Origin: Escherichia phage vB_EcoM-172859UKE1
Direction: 5' to 3' (one strand)
Sequence record: MZ234025.1
DNA: 64,000 bases
This document shows, in pieces, positions 3,320 to 64,000 of the stretch; within the stretch, counting starts at the first letter, position 1; each line of letters opens with the position of its first letter. The notes beneath the pieces are model-generated. The model had not been told where the DNA came from. It did no database searches and saw only the letters and a list, made by a program, of their open reading frames with translations. The position numbers and the translations under genes were made by a program.

Positions 3320-3504
3320 GCAAATTAACTAAAGTTACTTTTATTGGCTGGTTTAAAAATGATAATATGTTCACTAAAGATATCATGTTATCAGGCGACC
3401 GTGAAGAAATCGAGTGGGTTGCGGTACAACTCGCTGAAGTGAACAGTGCACTTGTTAAAGCATTTCTTAATGATGAGAAAGTTTTCGAAGCAGATTTTCG
3501 ATAA
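3316..3504 (+). CDS. dmd: Dmd, antitoxin/discriminator of mRNA degradation
   Basis: MSKLTKVTFIGWFKNDNMFTKDI...EVNSALVKAF matches T4 Dmd (60 aa) as recalled; ATG 3316 preceded by gagga; ORF-track start 3295 is probably too far upstream. Confidence 0.8.
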   Translation: MSKLTKVTFIGWFKNDNMFTKDIMLSGDREEIEWVAVQLAEVNSALVKAFLNDEKVFEADFR

Positions 3505-3517
3505 TTTTAAAATAACT

Positions 3518-3560
3518 GTTTACAAGCACCACATACTGTGTTACTATCTTTCTATCAACT
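3518..3560 (+). promoter_or_regulatory. Early promoter (GTTTAC at 3518-3523) upstream of lipoprotein gene
   Basis: GTTTAC followed by A/T-rich -10 region ttactat. Confidence 0.45.
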
Positions 3561-3575
3561 ACAGAGGAAATTGAA

Positions 3576-3944
3576 ATGAAAAAATTAATCGCTTTAGCAA
3601 TGGTATTTGGATTAACCGGATGTGGTGCCCATGGCTTTATCCCTAATAACGTTGGCCAACTGATTTACAATCCGAATGTTAAACAATATGAACAACCTAA
3701 AGTTGAAGTGGAAGACCCGGTTACTGTAGGTAATCGAATGATTCAAGCTGATGCTCATGCTCAACGTTATCGTGATTCTGATACTGTAGCATTGTCAAAA
3801 GAACAACGCGTTAAAGAACATTGCTTACAGGCTACTGAAATCGCATTCATTCGCTATGTTGAAACAACCGGTAAAGAGCCTACCCAGAAACAAATCGCGA
3901 ATAACTACGTCCAGTGTATTGAACGTTTAAACAAATTTAATTAA
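3576..3944 (+). CDS. putative lipoprotein (signal peptide, lipobox LTGC)
   Basis: N-terminus MKKLIALAMVFGLTGCGA; strong SD gaggaaattgaaATG. Confidence 0.6.
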   Translation: MKKLIALAMVFGLTGCGAHGFIPNNVGQLIYNPNVKQYEQPKVEVEDPVTVGNRMIQADAHAQRYRDSDTVALSKEQRVKEHCLQATEIAFIRYVETTGKEPTQKQIANNYVQCIERLNKFN

Positions 3945-3947
3945 TTG

Positions 3948-3990
3948 GTTTACACCAAAGTTAAAACAAGATACTATAAACATAACAAAT
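3948..3990 (+). promoter_or_regulatory. Early promoter (GTTTAC 3948-3953, TACTAT about 3972-3977)
   Basis: Consensus -35-like GTTTAC and A/T-rich -10. Confidence 0.45.
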
Positions 3991-4005
3991 CAAGAGGAAA
4001 TTAAC

Positions 4006-4254
4006 ATGGAATTATTCGTAGCTAGTTCAGTAGCAGTTTTAATCGCAGGTATTGGTTCAATCATCATTTACATGTTGCCTTGGGTAATCGCACTTATTCG
4101 TGGCACAAAAAGCACAACAGCAATCTTCTTCGTATCTTTACTCTTTAACTGGACGATGGTTGGTTGGATTGGAACTTTAATTTGGTCTATCGTTGCCGAA
4201 AAGAAATCTGCTCTACAGCCTCAACAAGTAATTATTATTCGCGAAAAAGAATAA
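4006..4254 (+). CDS. small two-TM membrane protein, superinfection-immunity (Imm) family-like
   Basis: YMLPWVIALIRG...NWTMVGWIGTLIWS pattern resembles Imm-type small membrane proteins; SD agaggaaattaacATG. Confidence 0.5.
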   Translation: MELFVASSVAVLIAGIGSIIIYMLPWVIALIRGTKSTTAIFFVSLLFNWTMVGWIGTLIWSIVAEKKSALQPQQVIIIREKE

Positions 4255-4258
4255 ACTT

Positions 4259-4300
4259 GTTTACATTATAGATGGACTATAGTATAGTAGTCCTATCAAA
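4259..4300 (+). promoter_or_regulatory. Early promoter in stem-loop (GTTTAC 4259-4264; ggactat/atagtagtcc imperfect inverted repeat around -10)
   Basis: Same atagtagtcctatc cassette recurs at 24882 and 25392. Confidence 0.55.
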
Positions 4301-4317
4301 TCAACTAAGGAGTTAAA

Positions 4318-4611
4318 ATGAAAAAGTTATCATTGGCAGCAATCTTACTTGCAGTATCATGTGCACCGGCTCCAGTTACGGCAGGTTATGATAAAGACCT
4401 CTGTGAGTGGTCAATGACTGCAAATCAAGAAGATGTTGAACAACAAATCTTCTCTGATATCATGAACATCACTAAACGAGACCGTCCTAATATGGTTAAT
4501 AAAGTTGTTGAACAACTTAAGTCTGGCGGTAACATGCAGTACAACTATGTTTTGTATTGTGACCCTAATTTCGATAACAAAGATATCGTAACCGAAATCA
4601 CAGGTGAATAA
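4318..4611 (+). CDS. sp: Spackle periplasmic protein (superinfection exclusion)
   Basis: Signal peptide plus GYDKDLCEWSMTA...GGNMQYNYVLYCD matching T4 Sp (97 aa) as recalled. Confidence 0.85.
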   Translation: MKKLSLAAILLAVSCAPAPVTAGYDKDLCEWSMTANQEDVEQQIFSDIMNITKRDRPNMVNKVVEQLKSGGNMQYNYVLYCDPNFDNKDIVTEITGE

Positions 4612-4612
4612 C

Positions 4613-5263
4613 ATGATTTATTACATGCACAAAAATGCGCCATTTAAATATGGTAAATTTCCTAATGCGCAATGTTATAATATAACGCCGAATGAAAATA
4701 ATAACGGATATCATATTGGTGTAATTTTTGTAATTGTTAAAGATAACGAAATCGTTGCCTGGGCAGATTTTAAAGGTACAACATATGATGTTAATCCTGT
4801 GCCTTTCACATATTACAATATAATGGATTTGGCATATGATTATAATTGGTTTAATCATGACGCGTTGGTTCATATTGAAGGTGTAGGATTTGACATCTCC
4901 TATTCTAGCTATTCATTATGTCCTATGAGCCGAGCTCACGGTAAAGATGTATCATATCTTTCAATTCGGAAACGTGTAAACTTCAAACGTAGTACAGAGT
5001 ATGTTGGTGGACTCTTTGTTAAAGATAATAAAATAACCCGTATTAGTTATCCTCTAAGTGTAGGTCAAAAAGATGTTGATGTTGATTTAGACTTAACTGA
5101 AAATAACATTAATCATATTGCTTCTGTATATTTTGATATCGATGAAAAAATTGTAGTGTGTGGATACGAATTACCACCTGAAGAAAAGGCTGAAGCAATT
5201 GAAGTCGAATTAGAAATTTCTGTTGATGACCAAATATTTAATGCATTTATGAATCGAGGTTAA
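4613..5263 (+). CDS. hypothetical protein (216 aa; position of T4 61.2)
   Basis: ORF appears AT-rich by eye; ATG 4613 after aggtga; ORF-track start 4604 is GTG. Confidence 0.5.
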   Translation: MIYYMHKNAPFKYGKFPNAQCYNITPNENNNGYHIGVIFVIVKDNEIVAWADFKGTTYDVNPVPFTYYNIMDLAYDYNWFNHDALVHIEGVGFDISYSSYSLCPMSRAHGKDVSYLSIRKRVNFKRSTEYVGGLFVKDNKITRISYPLSVGQKDVDVDLDLTENNINHIASVYFDIDEKIVVCGYELPPEEKAEAIEVELEISVDDQIFNAFMNRG

Positions 5264-5264
5264 A

Positions 5265-5462
5265 ATGACTACTGCAATTTGCACGGGTTCTAAAATTAGT
5301 GTTTTTACAAGTTTTGAAGATTATGAAGTTGTTTCAAAACACCAATACCATATTAGCGTAAAAGCTAATGATGGTGTAATTTGGAATATTCCACAGTATG
5401 AAGGCACTACATATGAAGTCACAGATATAAATGGTGACAAAGCAATCTTTGTAATTGATTAA
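5265..5462 (+). CDS. hypothetical protein (65 aa)
   Basis: ORF immediately after preceding stop; same strand. Confidence 0.4.
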   Translation: MTTAICTGSKISVFTSFEDYEVVSKHQYHISVKANDGVIWNIPQYEGTTYEVTDINGDKAIFVID

Positions 5463-5481
5463 ATATACTCAGGAGGTACCT

Positions 5482-5949
5482 ATGGGTATTATTAACACTG
5501 CAATAGATTCTGTTTACGCATATAAGTTTATTCGACTAATGCAAAAACCTTTTACCGAATGGAAAGCATACGAAGCCAAAATCATCGATGAACGTGGAAG
5601 TGTTCTTAAACGTCCTTCCACTCCTGAAGAGAAAGCGGCTTATACACCTTTTCATGCTTCAGTTCGTTCAATGAAGCGAATGATGAGCACTGTTCCAGGT
5701 CTTAATGGAATGGCCTCAATGATGTCTGCCTGGAGTGCTGTAGCTTCACGCTATAACATTACGGAAGAACAGCAGAAAGAAATATTTAAAGAACTCCCTT
5801 TATTTGAGGATATGGTTGCTGGTGATTCAGGTGGCAGCCCTCAAGCTATTGCATCAGGAACAACTACAGGTGCAGTAGTAAATAAAGGTCCAGAACAAAT
5901 TCCTTCCAAGAAAAGAAAGCGAATTAAAGTAAATATTAATAAGTTGTGA
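5482..5949 (+). CDS. hypothetical protein with basic C-terminal tail (KKRKRIK)
   Basis: ATG 5482 preceded by aggagg; ORF-track start 5455 is upstream of the SD. Confidence 0.5.
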   Translation: MGIINTAIDSVYAYKFIRLMQKPFTEWKAYEAKIIDERGSVLKRPSTPEEKAAYTPFHASVRSMKRMMSTVPGLNGMASMMSAWSAVASRYNITEEQQKEIFKELPLFEDMVAGDSGGSPQAIASGTTTGAVVNKGPEQIPSKKRKRIKVNINKL

Positions 5950-5988
5950 TAAGATGGCCTTATTAATTTAAGGCCTCTGGAGAATACT

Positions 5989-7011
5989 ATGGCTGAATGG
6001 ATAGATAATGAATTTGCTTATCGCGCGTTTTCTCACCTACCTCGTTTTAGACAAATCAATAATTCAAGCACATTTAAATTAACATTTCGATGTCCAGTTT
6101 GTGGCGACTCCCAGACAGATGCAATGAAAGCTCGCGGATGGTATTATGGCGGTACTCCTGGTAATGTACATTGTTATAATTGCCAATACCACAATACAAT
6201 TTCCGGATACTTAAAAGAGTATGATGAAGAGCTTTATCGCGAATATCTAATGGAAGTTCGTAAAGAAAAAGCTAGAATGGAACCAAAGATTGAAAAGGTT
6301 CCTGAACATAAACCAGAACCGGAGAAAAAGACTATAAATTCTTTGCCGTCTTGTTCTCGTCTGGACAAGCTGCCCGAAGAGCATCCTATTGTGAAATATG
6401 TTAAGTCTCGGTGTATTCCTAAAGAATCGTGGAACAGATTATGGTTCACATTAGAATGGCCTAAATTGGTCAACAAGATTCAACCTGGTACGTATAAGAA
6501 AGAGATTCCCGAACCACGTTTAGTGATTCCTATTTTTAATAAAGACGGGAAGGCCGAGTCATTCCAAGGACGTGCACTTCGTAAAGATGCTCCTCAGAAA
6601 TATATCACTATTAAAGCGTTTGAGTCTGCAACAAAAATTTATGGTGTTGAACGTGTTAAGGAAGGAGACGTCTGGGTAATGGAAGGTCCTATTGATAGTT
6701 TATTCATACCCAATGCAATCGCTATTACAGGCGGCTCAATAGATTTAGATGTGGTACCATTTAAAGAACGTCGGGTATGGGTAATGGATAATGAACCTAG
6801 GCATCCAGATACTATAGCTCGTATGAAGCGATTAGTTGATGCAGGCGAACGTGTCATGTTCTGGGACCGAGCTCCATGGAGATCAAAGGATGTGAATGAT
6901 ATGGTAATGAAAGAAAATGCAACACCACAAGAAATTTTAGAATACATGAAACAGAATATTTCAAGTGGGTTGCATGCTAAAATGAGATTATCTCATTATT
7001 CTAAGATTTAA
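5989..7011 (+). CDS. 61: gp61 DNA primase
   Basis: Zn-finger CPVCGDS...CYNCQ near N-terminus and Toprim-like region; T4 synteny. Confidence 0.9.
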   Translation: MAEWIDNEFAYRAFSHLPRFRQINNSSTFKLTFRCPVCGDSQTDAMKARGWYYGGTPGNVHCYNCQYHNTISGYLKEYDEELYREYLMEVRKEKARMEPKIEKVPEHKPEPEKKTINSLPSCSRLDKLPEEHPIVKYVKSRCIPKESWNRLWFTLEWPKLVNKIQPGTYKKEIPEPRLVIPIFNKDGKAESFQGRALRKDAPQKYITIKAFESATKIYGVERVKEGDVWVMEGPIDSLFIPNAIAITGGSIDLDVVPFKERRVWVMDNEPRHPDTIARMKRLVDAGERVMFWDRAPWRSKDVNDMVMKENATPQEILEYMKQNISSGLHAKMRLSHYSKI

Positions 7012-56054: not shown

Positions 56055-57047
56055 ATGTTACCTGTCGTCGGAAAACTTATTTCTCCAAAAGAACTGGCTG
56101 AGATTATTCCTTTGTCGGAAGCTTACGCATCACAAGTGGCTTCTCATCGCGAACAAGTTAATTCGATTATGAACGGTGAAGACCCACGCAAACTTATTGT
56201 TGTAGGTCCTTGTTCAATTCATGACCCTATTGCTGCTGTTGAATACGGCAAACGTCTGGCTGAACTTCAAACTCGTCTTCCTAATGTTCTGTTAGTGATG
56301 CGCGTTTATTTTGAAAAGCCTCGAACTACCGTAGGTTGGAAAGGTCTTGTAAATGATCCATATCTTGACGGAAGTTTTGATATGAACCACGGTCTTATAG
56401 TTGCACGAACATTGTGTCGTAAACTTCTACGTATGGGACTTCCATTAGCAACTGAAGTATTAGACCCATTCACGATTAAGTATCTTTCTGGTATTTTCTC
56501 ATGGGTTGCTATTGGCGCCCGTACGACTGAAAGTCAGACACATCGTGAAATTGCTTCAGGTCTACCGATGTGCGTAGGCTTCAAGAACGCAACCAATGGT
56601 TCTATTAAAGTAGCTACAGACGCGATGTATAGTGCCGCCTGGCCTCATCGGTATATGGGTATGGACGTCGATGGTACTGTAGGCATTGTTGAAGCTGAAG
56701 GTAATCAGAATACGCATATCGTATTGCGTGGCGGGACCAACGGCCCGAACTATCATTCTTCTGATATTCAAGAAGCTTCTAACAAAGCAAGGGCAGTAGG
56801 TCTGAATCATTATGTAATGGTTGACTGTAGCCATGCAAACGCTGCTGGGCATTATAGCAATCAAATTGGTATTGGTAAAAATTTAGCAGCTAATGATTTG
56901 GTCAAAGGAATTATGATAGAATCATTCCTACATGAAGGAAATCAAAAAATTTCTGATAATATGTCCTATGGCGTTTCCGTTACCGATGCGTGCATCAGTT
57001 GGGAACAAACTAAAGAGCTGTTAACTTATATTAATAAGGTTCAATAA
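56055..57047 (+). CDS. 3-deoxy-D-arabino-heptulosonate-7-phosphate (DAHP) synthase, class I (AroG/AroF-like)
   Basis: Colinear with E. coli AroG as recalled: VVGPCSIHDP, MRVYFEKPRTTVGWKGL.NDP, AIGARTTESQ.HRE.ASGL, GFKN.T.G.IKVA; stop overlaps cd ATG. Confidence 0.8.
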   Translation: MLPVVGKLISPKELAEIIPLSEAYASQVASHREQVNSIMNGEDPRKLIVVGPCSIHDPIAAVEYGKRLAELQTRLPNVLLVMRVYFEKPRTTVGWKGLVNDPYLDGSFDMNHGLIVARTLCRKLLRMGLPLATEVLDPFTIKYLSGIFSWVAIGARTTESQTHREIASGLPMCVGFKNATNGSIKVATDAMYSAAWPHRYMGMDVDGTVGIVEAEGNQNTHIVLRGGTNGPNYHSSDIQEASNKARAVGLNHYVMVDCSHANAAGHYSNQIGIGKNLAANDLVKGIMIESFLHEGNQKISDNMSYGVSVTDACISWEQTKELLTYINKVQ

Positions 57048-57983: not shown

Positions 57984-58316
57984 ATGTCTGAAGTACAACT
58001 CCCAATTCGTGCTGTTGGTGAATATGTCATTCTGGTTTCTGAACCCGCTCAAGCAGGTGATGAAGAAGTTACCGAATCAGGACTTGTGATTGGTAAACGT
58101 GTTCAAGGTGAAGTTCCTGAACTATGTGTAGTTCATTCTGTAGGTCCTGATGTTCCTGAAGGTTTTGTTGAAGTCGGTGATTTGACTCCACTACCAGTTG
58201 GACAAATTCGAAATGTTCCGCATCCATTTGTGGCTTTGGGACTTAAACAACCTAAAGAAATTAAACAGAAATTCGTAACATGCCACTATAAAGCTATTCC
58301 GTGTCTTTATAAGTGA
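57984..58316 (+). CDS. 31: gp31 co-chaperonin (GroES-like)
   Basis: [21 protein letters not shown]...; 110 aa; near-identical to T4 gp31 as recalled. Confidence 0.9.
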
Positions 58317-58317
58317 T

Positions 58318-58325
58318 ATAAATAA
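58318..58325 (+). promoter_or_regulatory. Late promoter TATAAATA upstream of rIII
   Basis: Exact TATAAATA right after gene 31 stop. Confidence 0.5.
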
Positions 58326-58440
58326 CTATATGAAGAGAACACTCTTCTAAGCGGTAGCCTACAACTGAGAGACTTGTCGAAAGAAGGTGAAATTCAGACG
58401 AACGTGGCTACTAAATATTATCTCGAATTGAGAATTTAAA

Positions 58441-58689
58441 ATGATTAAACAATTACAACACGCTCTTGAACTGCAACGAAACGCATGGAATAATGGTCAT
58501 GAAAACTACGGCGCATCTATTGATGTTGAAGCCGAAGCTCTTGAAATCCTTCGTTATTTCAAACATCTGAACCCGGTCCAGGCAGCTTTGGCTTCTGAAC
58601 TGGAAGCAAAAGATGAACTGAAATATGCTAAGCCTTTGGCTTCTGCAGCTCGTAAAGCAGTACGTCATTTTGTTATTACCCTGAAATAA
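58441..58689 (+). CDS. rIII: RIII lysis-inhibition accessory protein
   Basis: MIKQLQHALELQRNAWNNGHENYGASIDVEAEALEILRYF; 82 aa as T4 RIII. Confidence 0.85.
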   Translation: MIKQLQHALELQRNAWNNGHENYGASIDVEAEALEILRYFKHLNPVQAALASELEAKDELKYAKPLASAARKAVRHFVITLK

Positions 58690-58883
58690 GTGTTAGGTGA
58701 GTCACTACCTTAGTGTGAAGTTAAAATCGAGGAGCCGTCGAACTATGTTTTACGGTGTACCTCTTGAATGTTGACGAGGTTTATGGTTATCCTGTCGTTA
58801 AATATCCAAAACCTATGTTCCCTTCGAGGGCTTGCGCAGGCAATGTCAATAAGTCCTGCATTTTCATTTAAAGAGAATTTATA

Positions 58884-59063
58884 ATGGCAAAACAAGCTAA
58901 AGCAAAGAAAGCAGTTGAAAAGAAAGTTGATGGTACCTCTAAACGCGCTGGATACAAGCGTGGGTCGAACTATCGTATTAATCAAACAGTTGAGAAGATC
59001 ATGCGCAGAGCACGTGCAGTTCTTCGAGATGATGCTTCTCGTTTTGGAAAGGTTATTGCATAA
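58884..59063 (+). CDS. small basic protein (59 aa), unannotated by ORF track
   Basis: ATG 58884; MAKQAKAKKAVEKKVDG...; followed directly by terminator hairpin. Confidence 0.4.
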   Translation: MAKQAKAKKAVEKKVDGTSKRAGYKRGSNYRINQTVEKIMRRARAVLRDDASRFGKVIA

Positions 59064-59068
59064 TTTTA

Positions 59069-59090
59069 GGGAGACTTCGGTCTCCCTTTT
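59069..59090 (+). terminator. Terminator gggagacTTCGgtctccc + tttt
   Basis: Identical palindrome to 44161. Confidence 0.65.
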
Positions 59091-59122
59091 GTGCGTTTAG
59101 GGCAGAAAAAGTTTAAAAAGAT

Positions 59123-59152
59123 GTTTACTCTCCTGTAGGATGTGTTACTATA
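59123..59152 (+). promoter_or_regulatory. Early promoter (GTTTAC 59123-59128, ...TACTATAGAC)
   Basis: Upstream of ORF 59194. Confidence 0.5.
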
Positions 59153-59193
59153 GACTTGTACCACCTAATCGATAAAACAAACCGGAGAACAAA

Positions 59194-59562
59194 ATGAAAA
59201 TCAATCTGAACTCATACATCAAATGTAAAGACCACGACGGTTATAAAGCTATCGAAATTAAAGAATTCCAGTGGATGTTATACAAAGAGCAATTTGAGTT
59301 CGTAGGTTGTATGACCCCTGAAGGTCCTTCAGATGATTTCTCTTGGAAAATTGTGTTAGCAAACTTTTTCACAGGTGACACATACGAATTAAAAACTATT
59401 ATTACCGGTAAAATTCGTTCAGAAACATATGTTGACGAAGAAACCGGTTACTCTGAAGATGTTACATGGTATCAAAATGGACGCATTACAGCAGATAACC
59501 TGATCGAAAAAATGAAAGCCAAAGGTGTTTTAAATTTAGACAATTGGATTAAAGTTGCATAA
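59194..59562 (+). CDS. hypothetical protein (122 aa)
   Basis: SD accggagaacaaaATG. Confidence 0.5.
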   Translation: MKINLNSYIKCKDHDGYKAIEIKEFQWMLYKEQFEFVGCMTPEGPSDDFSWKIVLANFFTGDTYELKTIITGKIRSETYVDEETGYSEDVTWYQNGRITADNLIEKMKAKGVLNLDNWIKVA

Positions 59563-59566
59563 AACA

Positions 59567-59606
59567 GTTTACTTTGGTACAGGTTATGTTATTATAGACC
59601 TGTACC
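59567..59606 (+). promoter_or_regulatory. Early promoter in stem-loop (GTTTAC 59567-59572, TATTAT 59590-59595; ggtacaggt/acctgtacc)
   Basis: Perfect 9-bp inverted repeat flanks -10. Confidence 0.6.
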
Positions 59607-59636
59607 AACAAACAACTTAAACATCTGGAGAATAAA

Positions 59637-60002
59637 ATGAACTACATCAACTTCGAACGTAAATATGTTTCTAACGGTATCGCTGGTTCTTCTGAAGTTA
59701 TTTGCTTATGGAAATACGAAAACGGTACAGTTTGTGAAATCGAACAGTGCATGACTCCTAATTACGTTTATATGCGATTTGAAAATGGCATCACGGTTTC
59801 AATCACGATGGAAGGTTCCAACTTCAAAATTGCATTAGATGACGATTTCCGTCAGCGTGATTTAGGTACTCATCCTTGCTGGAATGGTGTTAATCGTAAA
59901 CTTCTGGTTAAAACTTGGATTCGTCATATCCTGAGTAACCGAGCTAAACCTGAACATCTCGAAGCAATCTTTGATGTAGTTCTTAACGAATTTGATATCT
60001 AA
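59637..60002 (+). CDS. hypothetical protein (121 aa)
   Basis: SD tctggagaataaaATG. Confidence 0.5.
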   Translation: MNYINFERKYVSNGIAGSSEVICLWKYENGTVCEIEQCMTPNYVYMRFENGITVSITMEGSNFKIALDDDFRQRDLGTHPCWNGVNRKLLVKTWIRHILSNRAKPEHLEAIFDVVLNEFDI

Positions 60003-60009
60003 ATTAATT

Positions 60010-60025
60010 GGGAGCTTCGGCTCCC
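60010..60025 (+). terminator. Hairpin gggagcTTCGgctccc
   Basis: UUCG-loop hairpin after stop. Confidence 0.5.
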
Positions 60026-60037
60026 ACTGAGGAAATT

Positions 60038-60652
60038 ATGTTTAAAGTTAATACTTTTTATAAAATGAATTTTAAAAATGGGGATATTACTCCACGCCTT
60101 AAAAACATGTTCTCATATGACCTTATTGAGCCTTTTGAAGTTTTAGAAGTTACTGATGCCGGCTCAGTTTGTGAAATTAGAACTTCTGAAGGTAAAATTT
60201 ATCAGGCCGGTGTTGGTAAATTCAGTAATTGTTTTACTTTAATATTCTCGACCGATTTAGATGAGCATTTTATTGAATGTCCTAACCCTAAGGTCTATGA
60301 AGTTCCACATCAAGAAACTAAGAAAAATGGACCGCACGAATATACGAAGGTTGAAACTCCTCACGGCGTGATGTGGCGACATAACTCTCCTTTTGGAAGT
60401 AAAGGAACATTTGCTCAACTGGCTAAGCCCTACGACGATGAAAAATATGTAGTAGTCCTTTTATCTGAACAGGGTACTCAAGACCGTGGATGCCAGCGTT
60501 CCGGTTTATTGAGTGAACTCGAAGCTCATAACCTAGCACGTGAATTCGTTGAGAAAAATCCTGGTTCTGAAGCTCTAGTCATGAAAGCAATTACTCAATA
60601 TATCACTGCTCAACCTGTTGTTCATCCGGTAGAAATTAATTTCATTAAGTAG
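60038..60652 (+). CDS. hypothetical protein (204 aa)
   Basis: ATG 60038 after ctgaggaaatt; ORF-track start 60008 lies within the hairpin. Confidence 0.5.
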   Translation: MFKVNTFYKMNFKNGDITPRLKNMFSYDLIEPFEVLEVTDAGSVCEIRTSEGKIYQAGVGKFSNCFTLIFSTDLDEHFIECPNPKVYEVPHQETKKNGPHEYTKVETPHGVMWRHNSPFGSKGTFAQLAKPYDDEKYVVVLLSEQGTQDRGCQRSGLLSELEAHNLAREFVEKNPGSEALVMKAITQYITAQPVVHPVEINFIK

Positions 60653-60682
60653 TGTACATCCAAGGACGGATTAGAGTATAAT
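60653..60682 (+). promoter_or_regulatory. Early promoter cassette GTGTACATCCAAGGACGGATTAGAGTATAAT
   Basis: Paralog of cassettes at 14133 and 14689. Confidence 0.6.
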
Positions 60683-60706
60683 GATTTCTTTAGTAAGTGG
60701 AAAAAT

Positions 60707-60904
60707 ATGAAATTTTTAATAGCACAAACAGTCCAATTAAAAGGTGTTGGAATCCCTGGGATGATTTTTAAAGTTCTCAACGAATTTAAAACTGCCGCTG
60801 GAATTATCAATGAAGCGTATGCTGTTCAATGGGTTGATGGGACTTCTGACATACGTATGGGTAAAGAGTTATCTCCTATTAAAGGGTTGAAACATGTTGA
60901 ATAA
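60707..60904 (+). CDS. hypothetical protein (65 aa)
   Basis: ORF downstream of promoter cassette. Confidence 0.4.
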   Translation: MKFLIAQTVQLKGVGIPGMIFKVLNEFKTAAGIINEAYAVQWVDGTSDIRMGKELSPIKGLKHVE

Positions 60905-61112
60905 ATTAATCCAGAAATTGTTTGGTACGGAAATGATTGAAGTTACTTATCGTGTAACCGACGTTTTTCCATATTACGCGGAAAACCGTTTAGAACCATA
61001 CGTTACGTCAATTAAAATGCCTAAAAATGACAGAAATTTATCTATCGAAGACCGTATACCTGGATACGGACATTGGGCTGATGTTGAAATTATAAGTGTT
61101 AAAGATGTCTGA
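60894..61112 (+). CDS. hypothetical protein (72 aa)
   Basis: Overlapping start with previous gene. Confidence 0.4.
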   Translation: MLNKLIQKLFGTEMIEVTYRVTDVFPYYAENRLEPYVTSIKMPKNDRNLSIEDRIPGYGHWADVEIISVKDV

Positions 61113-61563
61113 ATTAGAAATAAGAAGTAATTTCAAATGGCCGTCATGTGCATTAAGTAACTTTGCTCAATGGCCTTTTGTTATGGATGGTATTCAATTC
61201 GGAGGTCTTGAAGGATTTCTCCAAGGATGTAAGGTGAAAAATGTTGAACAACAAAGACGTATATTTGGGTTGTCTGGATTGGCTGCACAGCAAGCTGGAA
61301 GGTCTTACGCAAGAGCTCAGGACCGTGGGACTCTCTTCTGGTTAGGAGTTCCATTTTCAAGATACTCCGAAGCGTGGAAAGAATTATACACAAATGCATA
61401 TTTTGAAGCCGCGATCCAAAACAAGGGGTTTCGTGATGCCTTACAAGCCTCTAAAGGAAAAATTTTGAAGCACAGCATGGCCAGCCACCTAACAAAAGAT
61501 GATACAATACTAACTGAAGATGAATTTATTGACGTGTTAAACCTATTAAGAGACTCTTTATGA
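61105..61563 (+). CDS. NADAR (YbiA/DUF1768-like) domain protein
   Basis: FKWPSCALSNFAQWPF...GLEGFLQGCK...F motif layout typical of NADAR/YbiA family; ATG 61105. Confidence 0.5.
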   Translation: MSELEIRSNFKWPSCALSNFAQWPFVMDGIQFGGLEGFLQGCKVKNVEQQRRIFGLSGLAAQQAGRSYARAQDRGTLFWLGVPFSRYSEAWKELYTNAYFEAAIQNKGFRDALQASKGKILKHSMASHLTKDDTILTEDEFIDVLNLLRDSL

Positions 61564-62384
61564 AGCCTACTATTTTGACTGATATTGATGGTGTATGTTT
61601 AAGCTGGCAATCTGGACTTCCTTATTTTGCCCAAAAATATAACCTTCCATTAGAACATATTTTAAAAATGATTCAGGACGAAAAATTTATTTCTCCTGGT
61701 AAACTGTTCAATACCGACGATAACCTTGGTAAACAATTAATAGAAAAATATAATAGCTCTGATTTTATTCGTTACTTAGCGCCTTATTCTGATGCTCTTC
61801 GAGTTATCAATAAACTAAAAGAAGACTATAATTTTGTAGCCGTGACGGCGCTAGGTGATTCAATTGATGCTCGATTGAATAGACAATTTAATTTGAATGC
61901 TTTGTTCCCAGGCGCTTTCTCTGAAGTAATGATGTGTGGACATGATTCTTCAAAGGAACAATTATTCGAACTAGCTAAAACAAAATATAACGTGATTTGT
62001 TACGTTGACGATTTAGCTCATCATTGTGACCATGCGGCAGAAATTCTTAATGTACCGATTTATTGGTTGGCTCGTGGTGAACGTGACGCCATTCCTCGTA
62101 CTGCACAACGTGTACACACGTGGGATGATATTGAATCTCGTTTGGTTCCACCCGAGCATAATTCAGATTCAGATCGTGAAGACCTTTTAAAACGATTGGC
62201 GGATTTGCTTAAAGAATCTGGTGCAACAAGTCCAGGTGCATGGCCTAATCAAATTGGTGGCCCCTCGACAACACGTACTCCATATACCTGGCGAACCCCA
62301 GGACCAACTGATATGCAGCCGTGGTGGACGATTCAAAACTTTCCTTTAGATTCGTCTAAATGGACTTGGTCTATAAATTGTTAA
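61560..62384 (+). CDS. HAD-superfamily hydrolase (putative nucleotidase/phosphatase) with Trp/Pro-rich C-terminal tail
   Basis: N-terminal HAD motif I LTDIDGV; ATGA overlap with preceding gene. Confidence 0.5.
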   Translation: MKPTILTDIDGVCLSWQSGLPYFAQKYNLPLEHILKMIQDEKFISPGKLFNTDDNLGKQLIEKYNSSDFIRYLAPYSDALRVINKLKEDYNFVAVTALGDSIDARLNRQFNLNALFPGAFSEVMMCGHDSSKEQLFELAKTKYNVICYVDDLAHHCDHAAEILNVPIYWLARGERDAIPRTAQRVHTWDDIESRLVPPEHNSDSDREDLLKRLADLLKESGATSPGAWPNQIGGPSTTRTPYTWRTPGPTDMQPWWTIQNFPLDSSKWTWSINC

Positions 62385-62393
62385 GGGTTAATT

Positions 62394-62663
62394 ATGTTTG
62401 TAGTTCATGATATTACAGATGGCAAAAATACCACACGTGACTACGGTCACGTTAACATGTTCTTTCGAGACTGGCCATTGTTTCGTTCAGTAAAAGACGC
62501 AGAAATATTTAAAGAGTGTGTTGAACAAGGGTTCATCTACATTTCAGAATACTATGTTGAAGGACTCGGTAAATGGATTACAACTTATCAGAAAACGCTG
62601 AAATCGCTTCTAGATGAAGTGGCTTATAATAGAACCGTAACCAAAATCGAGGACATCAAATGA
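62394..62663 (+). CDS. hypothetical protein (89 aa)
   Basis: ORF whose stop overlaps ligase ATG. Confidence 0.4.
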   Translation: MFVVHDITDGKNTTRDYGHVNMFFRDWPLFRSVKDAEIFKECVEQGFIYISEYYVEGLGKWITTYQKTLKSLLDEVAYNRTVTKIEDIK

Positions 62664-64000
62664 TTTTAGATATTTTAAACCAAATAGCTGCGATCGGTTC
62701 TACTAAAACAAAACAGGAAATCCTTAAGAAAAATAAGGACAACAAATTACTTGAACGTGTGTATCGTTTAACATATGCACGTGGTATCCAGTATTATATT
62801 AAGAAATGGCCAGGACCAGGTGAAAGGTCTCAAGCGTATGGTCTTCTTGAATTAGATGACATGTTGGATTTTATTGAGTTCACATTAGCCACTCGTAAAC
62901 TCACTGGTAATGCTGCAATTAAAGAGCTCATGGGTTATATCGCTGATGGTAAACCTGATGATGTAGAAGTCCTTCGTCGTGTAATGATGCGCGACCTTGA
63001 AGTAGGTGCTTCAGTGTCTATCGCGAATAAGGTGTGGCCTGGACTTATTCAATTGCAACCACAGATGTTAGCATCTGCATATGACGAGAAATTGATTACT
63101 AAAAATATTAAATGGCCCGCATTTGCCCAATTAAAAGCAGATGGTGCTCGTTGTTTCGCTGAAGTTCGCGATGATGGTGTTCAATTCTTTTCTCGTGCCG
63201 GCAACGAATATCATGGTCTTACTCTATTAGCGGATGAACTAATGGAAATGACTAAAGAAGCTCGTGAAAGACACCCTAATGGGGTTTTAATCGACGGTGA
63301 ATTAGTTTATCATTCATTTGATATTAAAAAGGCTGTGAGCTCAGGAAATGACCTGTCGTTCTTATTTGGTGATAATGAAGAATCCGAAGAAGTACAGGTT
63401 GCAGACCGTAGCACTTCAAATGGTTTAGCAAATAAATCTCTTCAAGGGACTATTTCTCCTAAAGAAGCGGAAGGTATGGTTCTTCAAGCCTGGGACTACG
63501 TTCCTTTAGATGAAGTCTATTCTGATGGCAAAATTAAAGGTCAGAAATACGATGTTCGTTTTGCTGCTCTTGAAAATATGGCTGAAGGCTTTAAGCGAAT
63601 TGAGCCAATTGAAAATCAGTTAGTTCGTAATCTTGACGAAGCTAAAGTGGTTTATAAAAAATATGTTGACCAAGGTCTTGAAGGTATTATCCTTAAAAAC
63701 CGTGATTCATATTGGGAAAACAAACGCTCTAAGAATCTAATTAAATTTAAAGAAGTTATTGATATCGCTTTAGAAGTTGTAGGATACTATGAACACTCTA
63801 AAGACCCTAACAAATTAGGTGGTGTCGAACTCGTATCACGATGTCGTCGTATTACAACCGATTGCGGTTCAGGTTTTAAAGATACAACTCATAAAACAGT
63901 TGACGGTGTAAAGGTTCTTATTCCTTTAGACGAGCGTCATGATTTAGACCGTGAACGATTAATGACCGAAGCTCGTGAAGGTAAATTAATTGGACGTATC
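62660..64000 (+). CDS. 30: gp30 ATP-dependent DNA ligase, N-terminal ~447 aa (3' end outside window)
   Basis: MILDILNQIAA...; adenylation motif region KADGAR; open to window end. Confidence 0.9.
   Translation, partial: MILDILNQIAAIGSTKTKQEILKKNKDNKLLERVYRLTYARGIQYYIKKWPGPGERSQAYGLLELDDMLDFIEFTLATRKLTGNAAIKELMGYIADGKPDDVEVLRRVMMRDLEVGASVSIANKVWPGLIQLQPQMLASAYDEKLITKNIKWPAFAQLKADGARCFAEVRDDGVQFFSRAGNEYHGLTLLADELMEMTKEARERHPNGVLIDGELVYHSFDIKKAVSSGNDLSFLFGDNEESEEVQVADRSTSNGLANKSLQGTISPKEAEGMVLQAWDYVPLDEVYSDGKIKGQKYDVRFAALENMAEGFKRIEPIENQLVRNLDEAKVVYKKYVDQGLEGIILKNRDSYWENKRSKNLIKFKEVIDIALEVVGYYEHSKDPNKLGGVELVSRCRRITTDCGSGFKDTTHKTVDGVKVLIPLDERHDLDRERLMTEAREGKLIGRI

Follow-up and report, generated by a model that had tools for sequence, protein, structure and literature searches.

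Two overlapping genes were analysed in a 64,000-nucleotide stretch of DNA from Escherichia phage vB_EcoM-172859UKE1 (sequence record MZ234025.1). The whole stretch is called the window here. Judged by sequence and structure models, the first open reading frame (61105-61563) is adfN, the gene of a NADAR-fold enzyme, and the second (61560-62384) is gene 30.2, which would encode a divergent HAD phosphatase. The overall result points, with a probability of roughly 80%, to two adjacent, translationally coupled early genes with separate functions. The AdfN part of this picture and the independence of the two genes are held with still greater confidence. The adfN part is already known and was experimentally characterised in work published from 2023 to 2026, and gene 30.2 is a known conserved hypothetical gene, whose family has been narrowed here and whose function has not. 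The core annotation given by an earlier, sequence-only reading of this DNA, namely a NADAR gene overlapping a HAD gene, stands. Links to both superfamilies were found, and the C-terminal tail of the HAD gene is present in frame in relatives.

The adfN gene and its product

Both open reading frames lie on the + strand, and the sequence-only reading had placed them correctly, stop codons included. The first encodes 152 amino acids (aa) counted from the ATG at 61105. Its earliest possible start is a GTG at 61096, and T4 and its relatives start at the ATG. The second encodes 274 aa. Synteny and sequence identified the two as orthologues of T4 genes 30.3 and 30.2. The tblastn search found the protein of the first in 1510 phage records and that of the second in 1438. 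Therefore, chance open reading frames are excluded for both genes. The ATGA at 61560-61563 is shared by the two, in that the stop codon TGA of adfN overlaps the start codon ATG of gene 30.2. This overlap of four nucleotides (nt) is identical in T4 and suggests translational coupling.

The window AdfN is 96% identical to T4 gp30.3 across all 152 aa. Its match to the Pfam family PF08010 (Phage_30_3) has an E value of 2.1e-69, scores 232 bits where the cut-off is 36, and spans the whole profile (positions 1-138 of 138). The WP, LSNF, W and GLEGF pattern on which the NADAR assignment had first been based is present and reads ...KWPSCALSNFAQWPFVMDGIQFGGLEGFLQG... in the translation. The proposed profile check against NADAR (DUF1768) was borne out in part. 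No direct match of the window AdfN to Pfam NADAR (PF08719) appeared at E values up to 1. On the other hand, besides the PF08010 match, 14 of 37 AdfN family members matched Pfam NADAR (best E 1.5e-7), and a PDB search with the AdfN family profile picked up E. coli YbiA (2b3w) at E 0.0017, the aligned region running over the SNF...E..Q..K motif. The AlphaFold model, with a predicted local distance difference test (pLDDT) value of 93.9, had PDB matches in Foldseek at a probability of at least 0.97 only to YbiA (2b3w), PnNADAR (8bau) and the G. lovleyi NADAR (8bat). Since a direct Pfam NADAR match is lacking, the place of AdfN in the NADAR superfamily rests on transitive sequence links and on the fold. 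With the Pfam match, the T4 identity and the AlphaFold and Foldseek results taken together, the gene at 61105-61563 is annotated as the T4 gene 30.3 orthologue, encoding a predicted phage-type NADAR DNA ADP-ribosylglycohydrolase.

The catalytic residues known from T4 can be read directly from the sequence. The codons of E36 (GAA, 61210-61212) and K43 (AAG, 61231-61233) bound the part of the GLEGFLQGCK motif at 61210-61233 on the + strand, and both residues are invariant in alignments of 37-38 AdfN family sequences. The codon of H123 (CAC) lies at 61471-61473 (+). This histidine directly follows the modelled strand 120-122, is invariant in the AdfN family alignments and marks the phage gp30.3 subfamily. 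In phage gp30.3 NADARs, it was described as taking the place of the catalytic Glu or Asp of other NADARs (PMC11125620; PMC11825919). The protein has its full length of 152 aa, and the C-terminal helix (aa 138-151; 61516-61557, +) is intact in the AlphaFold model. As a side observation, the frame that corresponds to the internal out-of-frame T4 open reading frame 30.3' (75 aa) lies at 61241-61468 (+) and is stopped at codon 35. Thus, 30.3' is not conserved as a coding frame in this phage.

The function of the T4 orthologue is already settled in the literature. T4 gene 30.3 was renamed adfN by Johannesman et al. (Nat Commun 2025; PMC11825919), and the published work showed that T4 AdfN is a guanine-specific DNA ADP-ribosylglycohydrolase countering DarTG1. 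Deletion of adfN made T4 and T2 sensitive to DarTG1, purified T4 AdfN stripped ADP-ribose off DarT1-modified DNA, and the function was impaired by E36A and by K43A (PMC11825919). RB69 is sensitive to DarTG1 because of a 1-nt insertion that deletes the last helix of AdfN; it was rescued by ectopic expression of adfN, and a truncation of the RB69 type at the AdfN C-terminus lowered the activity (PMC11825919). The in vitro activity of phage gp30.3 NADARs was also given by two further papers (PMC11125620, PMC12945103), and the T4 enzyme was found to hydrolyse ADP-ribosylated guanine (G-ADPr) and not C-ADPr (PMC12945103). In the HIDEN-SEQ transposon screen of T4 under DarTG1, gene 30.3 had a log2 fold change (log2FC) of -7.25, which is a drop of about 150-fold (bioRxiv 10.1101/2025.11.20.689424, Data S6).

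The same mechanism is proposed for the AdfN of the window. Where host DarT1 has modified the phage DNA during infection, the enzyme would hydrolyse the N-glycosidic bond that links ADP-ribose to guanine. The removal of ADP-ribose would restore replicable phage DNA, and the DarTG1 defence would be defeated. E36 and K43 are expected to bind and activate ADP-ribose, H123 would stand in for the third catalytic acid, and full activity would require the C-terminal helix. Removal of guanine-linked ADP-ribose by this particular allele is inferred from the T4 orthologue. Since none of E36, K43, H123 and the C-terminal helix is lost here, the phage is predicted to resist DarTG1, unlike its genus-mate RB69. 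An intact adfN in a Mosigvirus is the new point here, and the prediction drawn from it may help in the prediction of host range or in the design of phage-therapy cocktails.

Relation of gene 30.2 to AdfN

The sequence-only reading had joined the NADAR and HAD genes with the neighbouring ligase and with ADP-ribosyltransferases in one anti-ADP-ribosylation or repair module. In a module of this kind, gp30.2 would be the T-even factor of AdfN, or it would act on the ADP-ribose that is set free or on a phospho-ribose remnant. The idea is tempting, as the genes overlap at the ATGA, the two are neighbours both in Tevenvirinae and in Acinetobacter phages of the Twarogvirinae, and the two proteins occur in similar numbers of records (1438 and 1510). 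Besides, full AdfN activity was reported to need an additional T-even factor (PMC11825919). The published T4 data argue strongly against it. Under DarTG1, gene 30.2 was neutral in the HIDEN-SEQ screen (71 sites; log2FC -0.12, p 0.61), where gene 30.3 stood at -7.25 (bioRxiv 10.1101/2025.11.20.689424, Data S6). These published T4 data showed that gene 30.2 is dispensable for DarTG1 evasion. In the same study, insertions were tolerated at all 72 gene 30.2 sites of the reference library, the gene was neutral in M9 compared with LB (log2FC -0.10) with no minimal-medium phenotype, and the main text never mentions it (bioRxiv 10.1101/2025.11.20.689424). The candidacy of gp30.2 as the missing AdfN helper was dropped on the neutral values in the supplementary tables.

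The distribution of the genes speaks in the same direction. Six distant AdfN loci were searched for gene 30.2 by tblastn and by hidden Markov model search, and the pair was kept only in the Acinetobacter Twarogvirinae phage. No 30.2 homologue was found within 4 kb of the AdfN homologue in Aeromonas avDM5, Vibrio D485, Sinorhizobium phiN3, Brevundimonas Marchewka or Ralstonia RSP15. With five of the six loci lacking gene 30.2, an obligate linkage of NADAR and HAD was also dropped. The adjacency in T4-like phages is explained by the conserved synteny of the cd-31-rIII-30.x-30 block. A common module is therefore considered very unlikely. For DarTG1 it is already largely refuted, and the notion of gene 30.2 working with AdfN has been removed as unsupported. 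The reading of two coupled genes with separate functions is preferred.

The setting of the distant AdfN homologues is worth describing in its own right. In the fetched loci of avDM5, RSP15, phiN3 and Marchewka, the homologue lies at about 4001-4450. All four phages are outside Tevenvirinae. The homologues of Aeromonas avDM5 and Ralstonia RSP15 are found inside tRNA gene clusters, and those of Sinorhizobium phiN3 and Brevundimonas Marchewka adjoin genes of RNA ligase and tRNA nucleotidyltransferase. Such neighbours are a hint that the AdfN homologues of these phages act on RNA instead of DNA.

Gene 30.4, which directly precedes adfN, was also considered as the source of the T-even factor. Its homologue in the window (60894-61112, +) encodes 72 aa, belongs to PHROG 2042, is 53% identical to T4 gp30.4 and overlaps the start of adfN by 8 nt. 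In the T4 screen under DarTG1, 30.4 was the only significant gene besides 30.3 (log2FC -1.79, adjusted p 0.014), and the authors stated that polar effects were not widespread in their data (bioRxiv 10.1101/2025.11.20.689424). The gp30.4 protein was detectable only in enterobacterial T-even-type phages, with 721 records against 1510 for AdfN. An obvious Shine-Dalgarno sequence was not seen for adfN. Because of this, lost translational coupling is the simplest account of the 30.4 signal. That gene 30.4, rather than the HAD gene, supplies the T-even-specific factor is regarded as improbable.

The predicted phosphatase of gene 30.2 and its tail

The gene 30.2 product starts MKPTILTDIDGVCLSW. The HAD assignment had been proposed from the LTDIDGV motif at this start, and it was strengthened by the finding of all four HAD motifs and of the HAD fold. 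The predicted phosphatase core with its C1 cap covers aa 1-195 (61560-62144, +) and carries motif I at D8 and D10, motif II at T96, motif III at K132 and motif IV at D150 and D151. In alignments of 30 and 49 relatives, D8, D10, K132, D150 and D151 were invariant and T96 was nearly invariant. In a set of 34 tail-less sequences, D150 and D151 were nearly invariant. The structure model is confident over aa 1-195 and has a HAD Rossmannoid fold, in which a helical C1 cap takes up about aa 16-86. Foldseek returned 110 PDB matches at E values of at most 0.001, and all 50 of those listed belong to the HAD superfamily. Among the matches listed, the top one was the cytosolic 5'(3')-deoxyribonucleotidase (cdN) 2jao with E 2.4e-8.

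The curated profiles gave a different picture for the window protein itself. None of the HAD profiles was matched above its cut-off: Pfam HAD_2 reached 16 bits against 23.8, TIGR01428 was the only NCBIfam model seen (12.7 bits against 125), and Pfam NT5C (PF06941) was not matched. The protein belongs to PHROG 420, which is annotated as "unknown function". Therefore, the gp30.2 family is a divergent one that the curated models do not capture. Its relatives were more informative. When 1.84 billion representative proteins were searched with the profile, 1063 relatives were obtained. NT5C was weakly matched by 6 of 49 close relatives, and it was the commonest Pfam match among 92 distant ones (37 of 92, best E 4.2e-10). 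Against the PDB, the family profile matched only 5'(3')-deoxyribonucleotidase, with E 0.2 for the alignment to 2jao. This alignment pairs W16, F43 and Y64, which are invariant, with F18, F44 and Y65, the aromatic cap residues that hold base and sugar in cdN. The check proposed for HAD and NT5C profiles thus succeeded for the HAD motifs and for the relatives and failed for the window protein, which stayed below every curated cut-off.

Sequence and model together indicate that gp30.2 is a divergent HAD phosphatase of an NT5C-like kind, to be read as a relative of the NT5C family whose membership is not established. It would act as a Mg2+-dependent phosphomonoesterase, with D8 as the nucleophile and D10 as the acid/base, T96 and K132 binding the phosphate and D150 and D151 binding Mg2+. 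Because its nearest relatives are the 5'(3')-deoxyribonucleotidases of the NT5C type, a nucleoside monophosphate may be its likeliest substrate. The enzyme is probably nucleotide-directed as a class, and we would give a nucleotide as its actual substrate slightly less than even odds. The literature searched on gp30.2 and gene 30.2 held nothing relevant, neither an experimental function nor biochemical data.

Two other activities were weighed. HAD enzymes with a helical C1 cap usually act on small molecules, and Pnkp is capless. A non-nucleotide small molecule, such as a sugar phosphate, a phosphoglycolate or a cofactor intermediate, could be the substrate instead. This alternative is doubtful, though it deserves more weight than the others considered here. 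Against it, NT5C gave the sole PDB profile match, the top Foldseek match and the commonest Pfam match of distant relatives. The position beside the ligase could also recall an end-healing 3'-phosphatase, which would prime nicks for the ligase like the HAD domain of T4 polynucleotide kinase. Such a role appears quite unlikely. In the gp30.2 model, motifs I and II are separated by a complete helical C1 cap, which Pnkp lacks. C1-capped enzymes and NT5C scored higher, and T4-like phages already encode PseT.

Beyond the core, the model has a predicted amphipathic helix (aa 202-220; 62163-62219, +) that links the core with the tail. The protein sequence of this helix is identical in six of the seven fetched Mosigvirus relatives, and 308Ecol101PP has one substitution. 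The Trp/Pro/Thr-rich tail itself (aa 225-274 and the stop codon; 62232-62384, +) is predicted to be disordered, with pLDDT below 50, and the product ends ...GAWPNQIGGPSTTRTPYTWRTPGPTDMQPWWTIQNFPLDSSKWTWSINC. The sequence-only reading had raised the possibility that the C-terminal 50-80 aa are a frameshift or sequencing artefact and are not translated as read. The unusual composition, the low model confidence and the poor alignment to T4, in which the TWRTPG motif alone survives, would fit that suspicion. The comparison with relatives overturned it. The frame stays open in 149 independent phage records, which carry the tail at a nucleotide identity of at least 80%. At the codon level, the tail was compared with the seven fetched Mosigvirus relatives and T4, and the length differences among the fetched relatives are indels of 3, 6 or 9 nt, that is, whole codons. 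Synonymous changes outnumber non-synonymous ones (nine against two in the comparison with RB69), and the ratio of non-synonymous to synonymous substitution rates (dN/dS) is 0.05-0.17 against RB69, AV116, O157 typing phage 6 (O157tp6) and ST0. The other two reading frames hold short open reading frames only. An artefact has practically no chance of being the explanation. The tail is genuine and under purifying selection across Mosigvirus, and it diverges fast between genera.

Comparable tails are widespread in the family. In a survey of 100 family sequences (99 cluster representatives and the window protein), 56 had a tail of at least 40 aa beyond the HAD core. In these 56 tails, W is enriched 3.4-fold, P 3.2-fold and T 2.3-fold, and WP and W[RK]xP motifs recur. 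By sequence, a W/P/T-rich tail is thus a trait of the gp30.2 family. A G[IV]EY...QPT motif ends 16 of the 56 tailed sequences and is not present in the window protein. A C-terminal G(T)GIEYL(N/Y)xQPT...GK motif was seen in many gp30.2 proteins of the Tequatrovirus and Klebsiella types, for example in that of T4 (3475-4311 in the fetched locus). Most plausibly, the tail would be a docking element that acts via short linear motifs. It could tether the nucleotidase to some complex of the phage or the host as part of an as yet unscreened counter-defence, an idea with less support than the one on gene 30.4. Gene 30.2 is thus a widely conserved T4-like gene that is now narrowed to a putative NT5C-like HAD phosphatase with a selected disordered tail.

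The tail and the core also differ in their divergence. Compared with RB69, the synonymous divergence (dS) of the tail (0.37; 62232-62384) is roughly fivefold that of the HAD core (0.07; 61560-62144), and the Mosigvirus 308Ecol101PP has a different distal tail. These two observations suggest a recombination boundary inside gene 30.2.

Genomic setting and comparison with known systems

The 1.8 kb around the two genes have matches in 655 phage records and share 99.5% identity with the Mosigvirus Escherichia phage mogra. By sequence, the source is a Mosigvirus-type T4-like phage. Between 56 and 64 kb of the window lies the T4-type block of genes cd - 31 - rIII - 30.9 ... 30.1 - 30, on the + strand. 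The pair had been said to adjoin DNA ligase, and this is right. Downstream of gene 30.2 is the homologue of gene 30.1 (DUF3045; 62394-62663, +), which encodes 89 aa and is supported by Pfam PF11243 (E 1.4e-26) and by T4 synteny, followed by the 5' part of gene 30, the ATP-dependent DNA ligase (62660-64000, +), which runs off the window end. The ligase position was taken from the mogra annotation at 99.5% identity, in which 4761-6254 of the locus corresponds to 62660-64153 in window numbering. A promoter and terminator scan of 58300-64000 gave counts not above those of shuffled sequence, so that transcription units cannot be inferred from the scan. Further upstream, a gene of 330 aa at 56055-57047 (+) encodes a predicted 3-deoxy-7-phosphoheptulonate (DAHP) synthase of the AroF/G/H type (NCBIfam E 1e-136), directly upstream of the gene of deoxycytidine monophosphate (dCMP) deaminase. 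About 140 phage records, mostly of the Mosigvirus type, carry this gene with an annotation, and it is a known auxiliary metabolic gene of Mosigvirus.

For gene 30.2, the nearest known systems are T4 gp30.2 and the NT5C-type enzymes cdN and mdN (PF06941; 2jao, 2i7d, 1mh9, 3bwv). T4 gp30.2 is an orthologue in the same position; the identity is 86% within the HAD core and 69% across 265 aa. The tails are different in that the window protein is without the distal GGIEYLYNRPT...FQGAF end of T4 and finishes ...SKWTWSINC. With the NT5C-type enzymes, gp30.2 shares the HAD core, the C1 cap and the DxDGV(L)xx[F/W]xSGL region of motif I. However, the identity is only 14-20%, and the NT5C-type enzymes have no equivalent of the extra helix and the 50-aa W/P/T-rich disordered tail.

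For adfN, the closest system is that of T4. The gene has the same position between 30.4 and 30.2, and its product keeps E36, K43, H123 and the C-terminal helix. Six substitutions relative to T4 gp30.3 were found (K11R, E89P, I120V, M125I, H128G, and D139A), none of them at known functional residues. Unlike T4, the phage of the window belongs to Mosigvirus together with RB69, which has a truncated, inactive adfN allele. The RB69 allele aligns to aa 1-137 only, whereas the window allele keeps the helix. In RB69, the truncated adfN (365-821 in the fetched locus) stops 42 nt before gene 30.2, and the ATGA coupling of the window and T4 is lost.

More distant are the NADAR antitoxins associated with DarT, such as DarG1, and YbiA (PF08719; 8bat, 8bau, 2b3w). 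They have the same fold as AdfN, with Foldseek TM-scores on the query (TMq) of 0.46-0.67, and the SNF...E..Q..K core motif in common. To judge from the T4 orthologue, the guanine-ADP-ribose hydrolase chemistry would be shared with the DarG1-type antitoxins as well. In contrast, the identity to these antitoxins and YbiA is only 15-18%, and a His takes the place of the third catalytic Glu or Asp. The window AdfN is also without the N-terminal extension of DarG1, and T4 AdfN has no antitoxin function in uninfected cells (PMC11825919). AdfN is a good example of an orphan antitoxin-like phage enzyme that undoes the DNA damage of a defence system.

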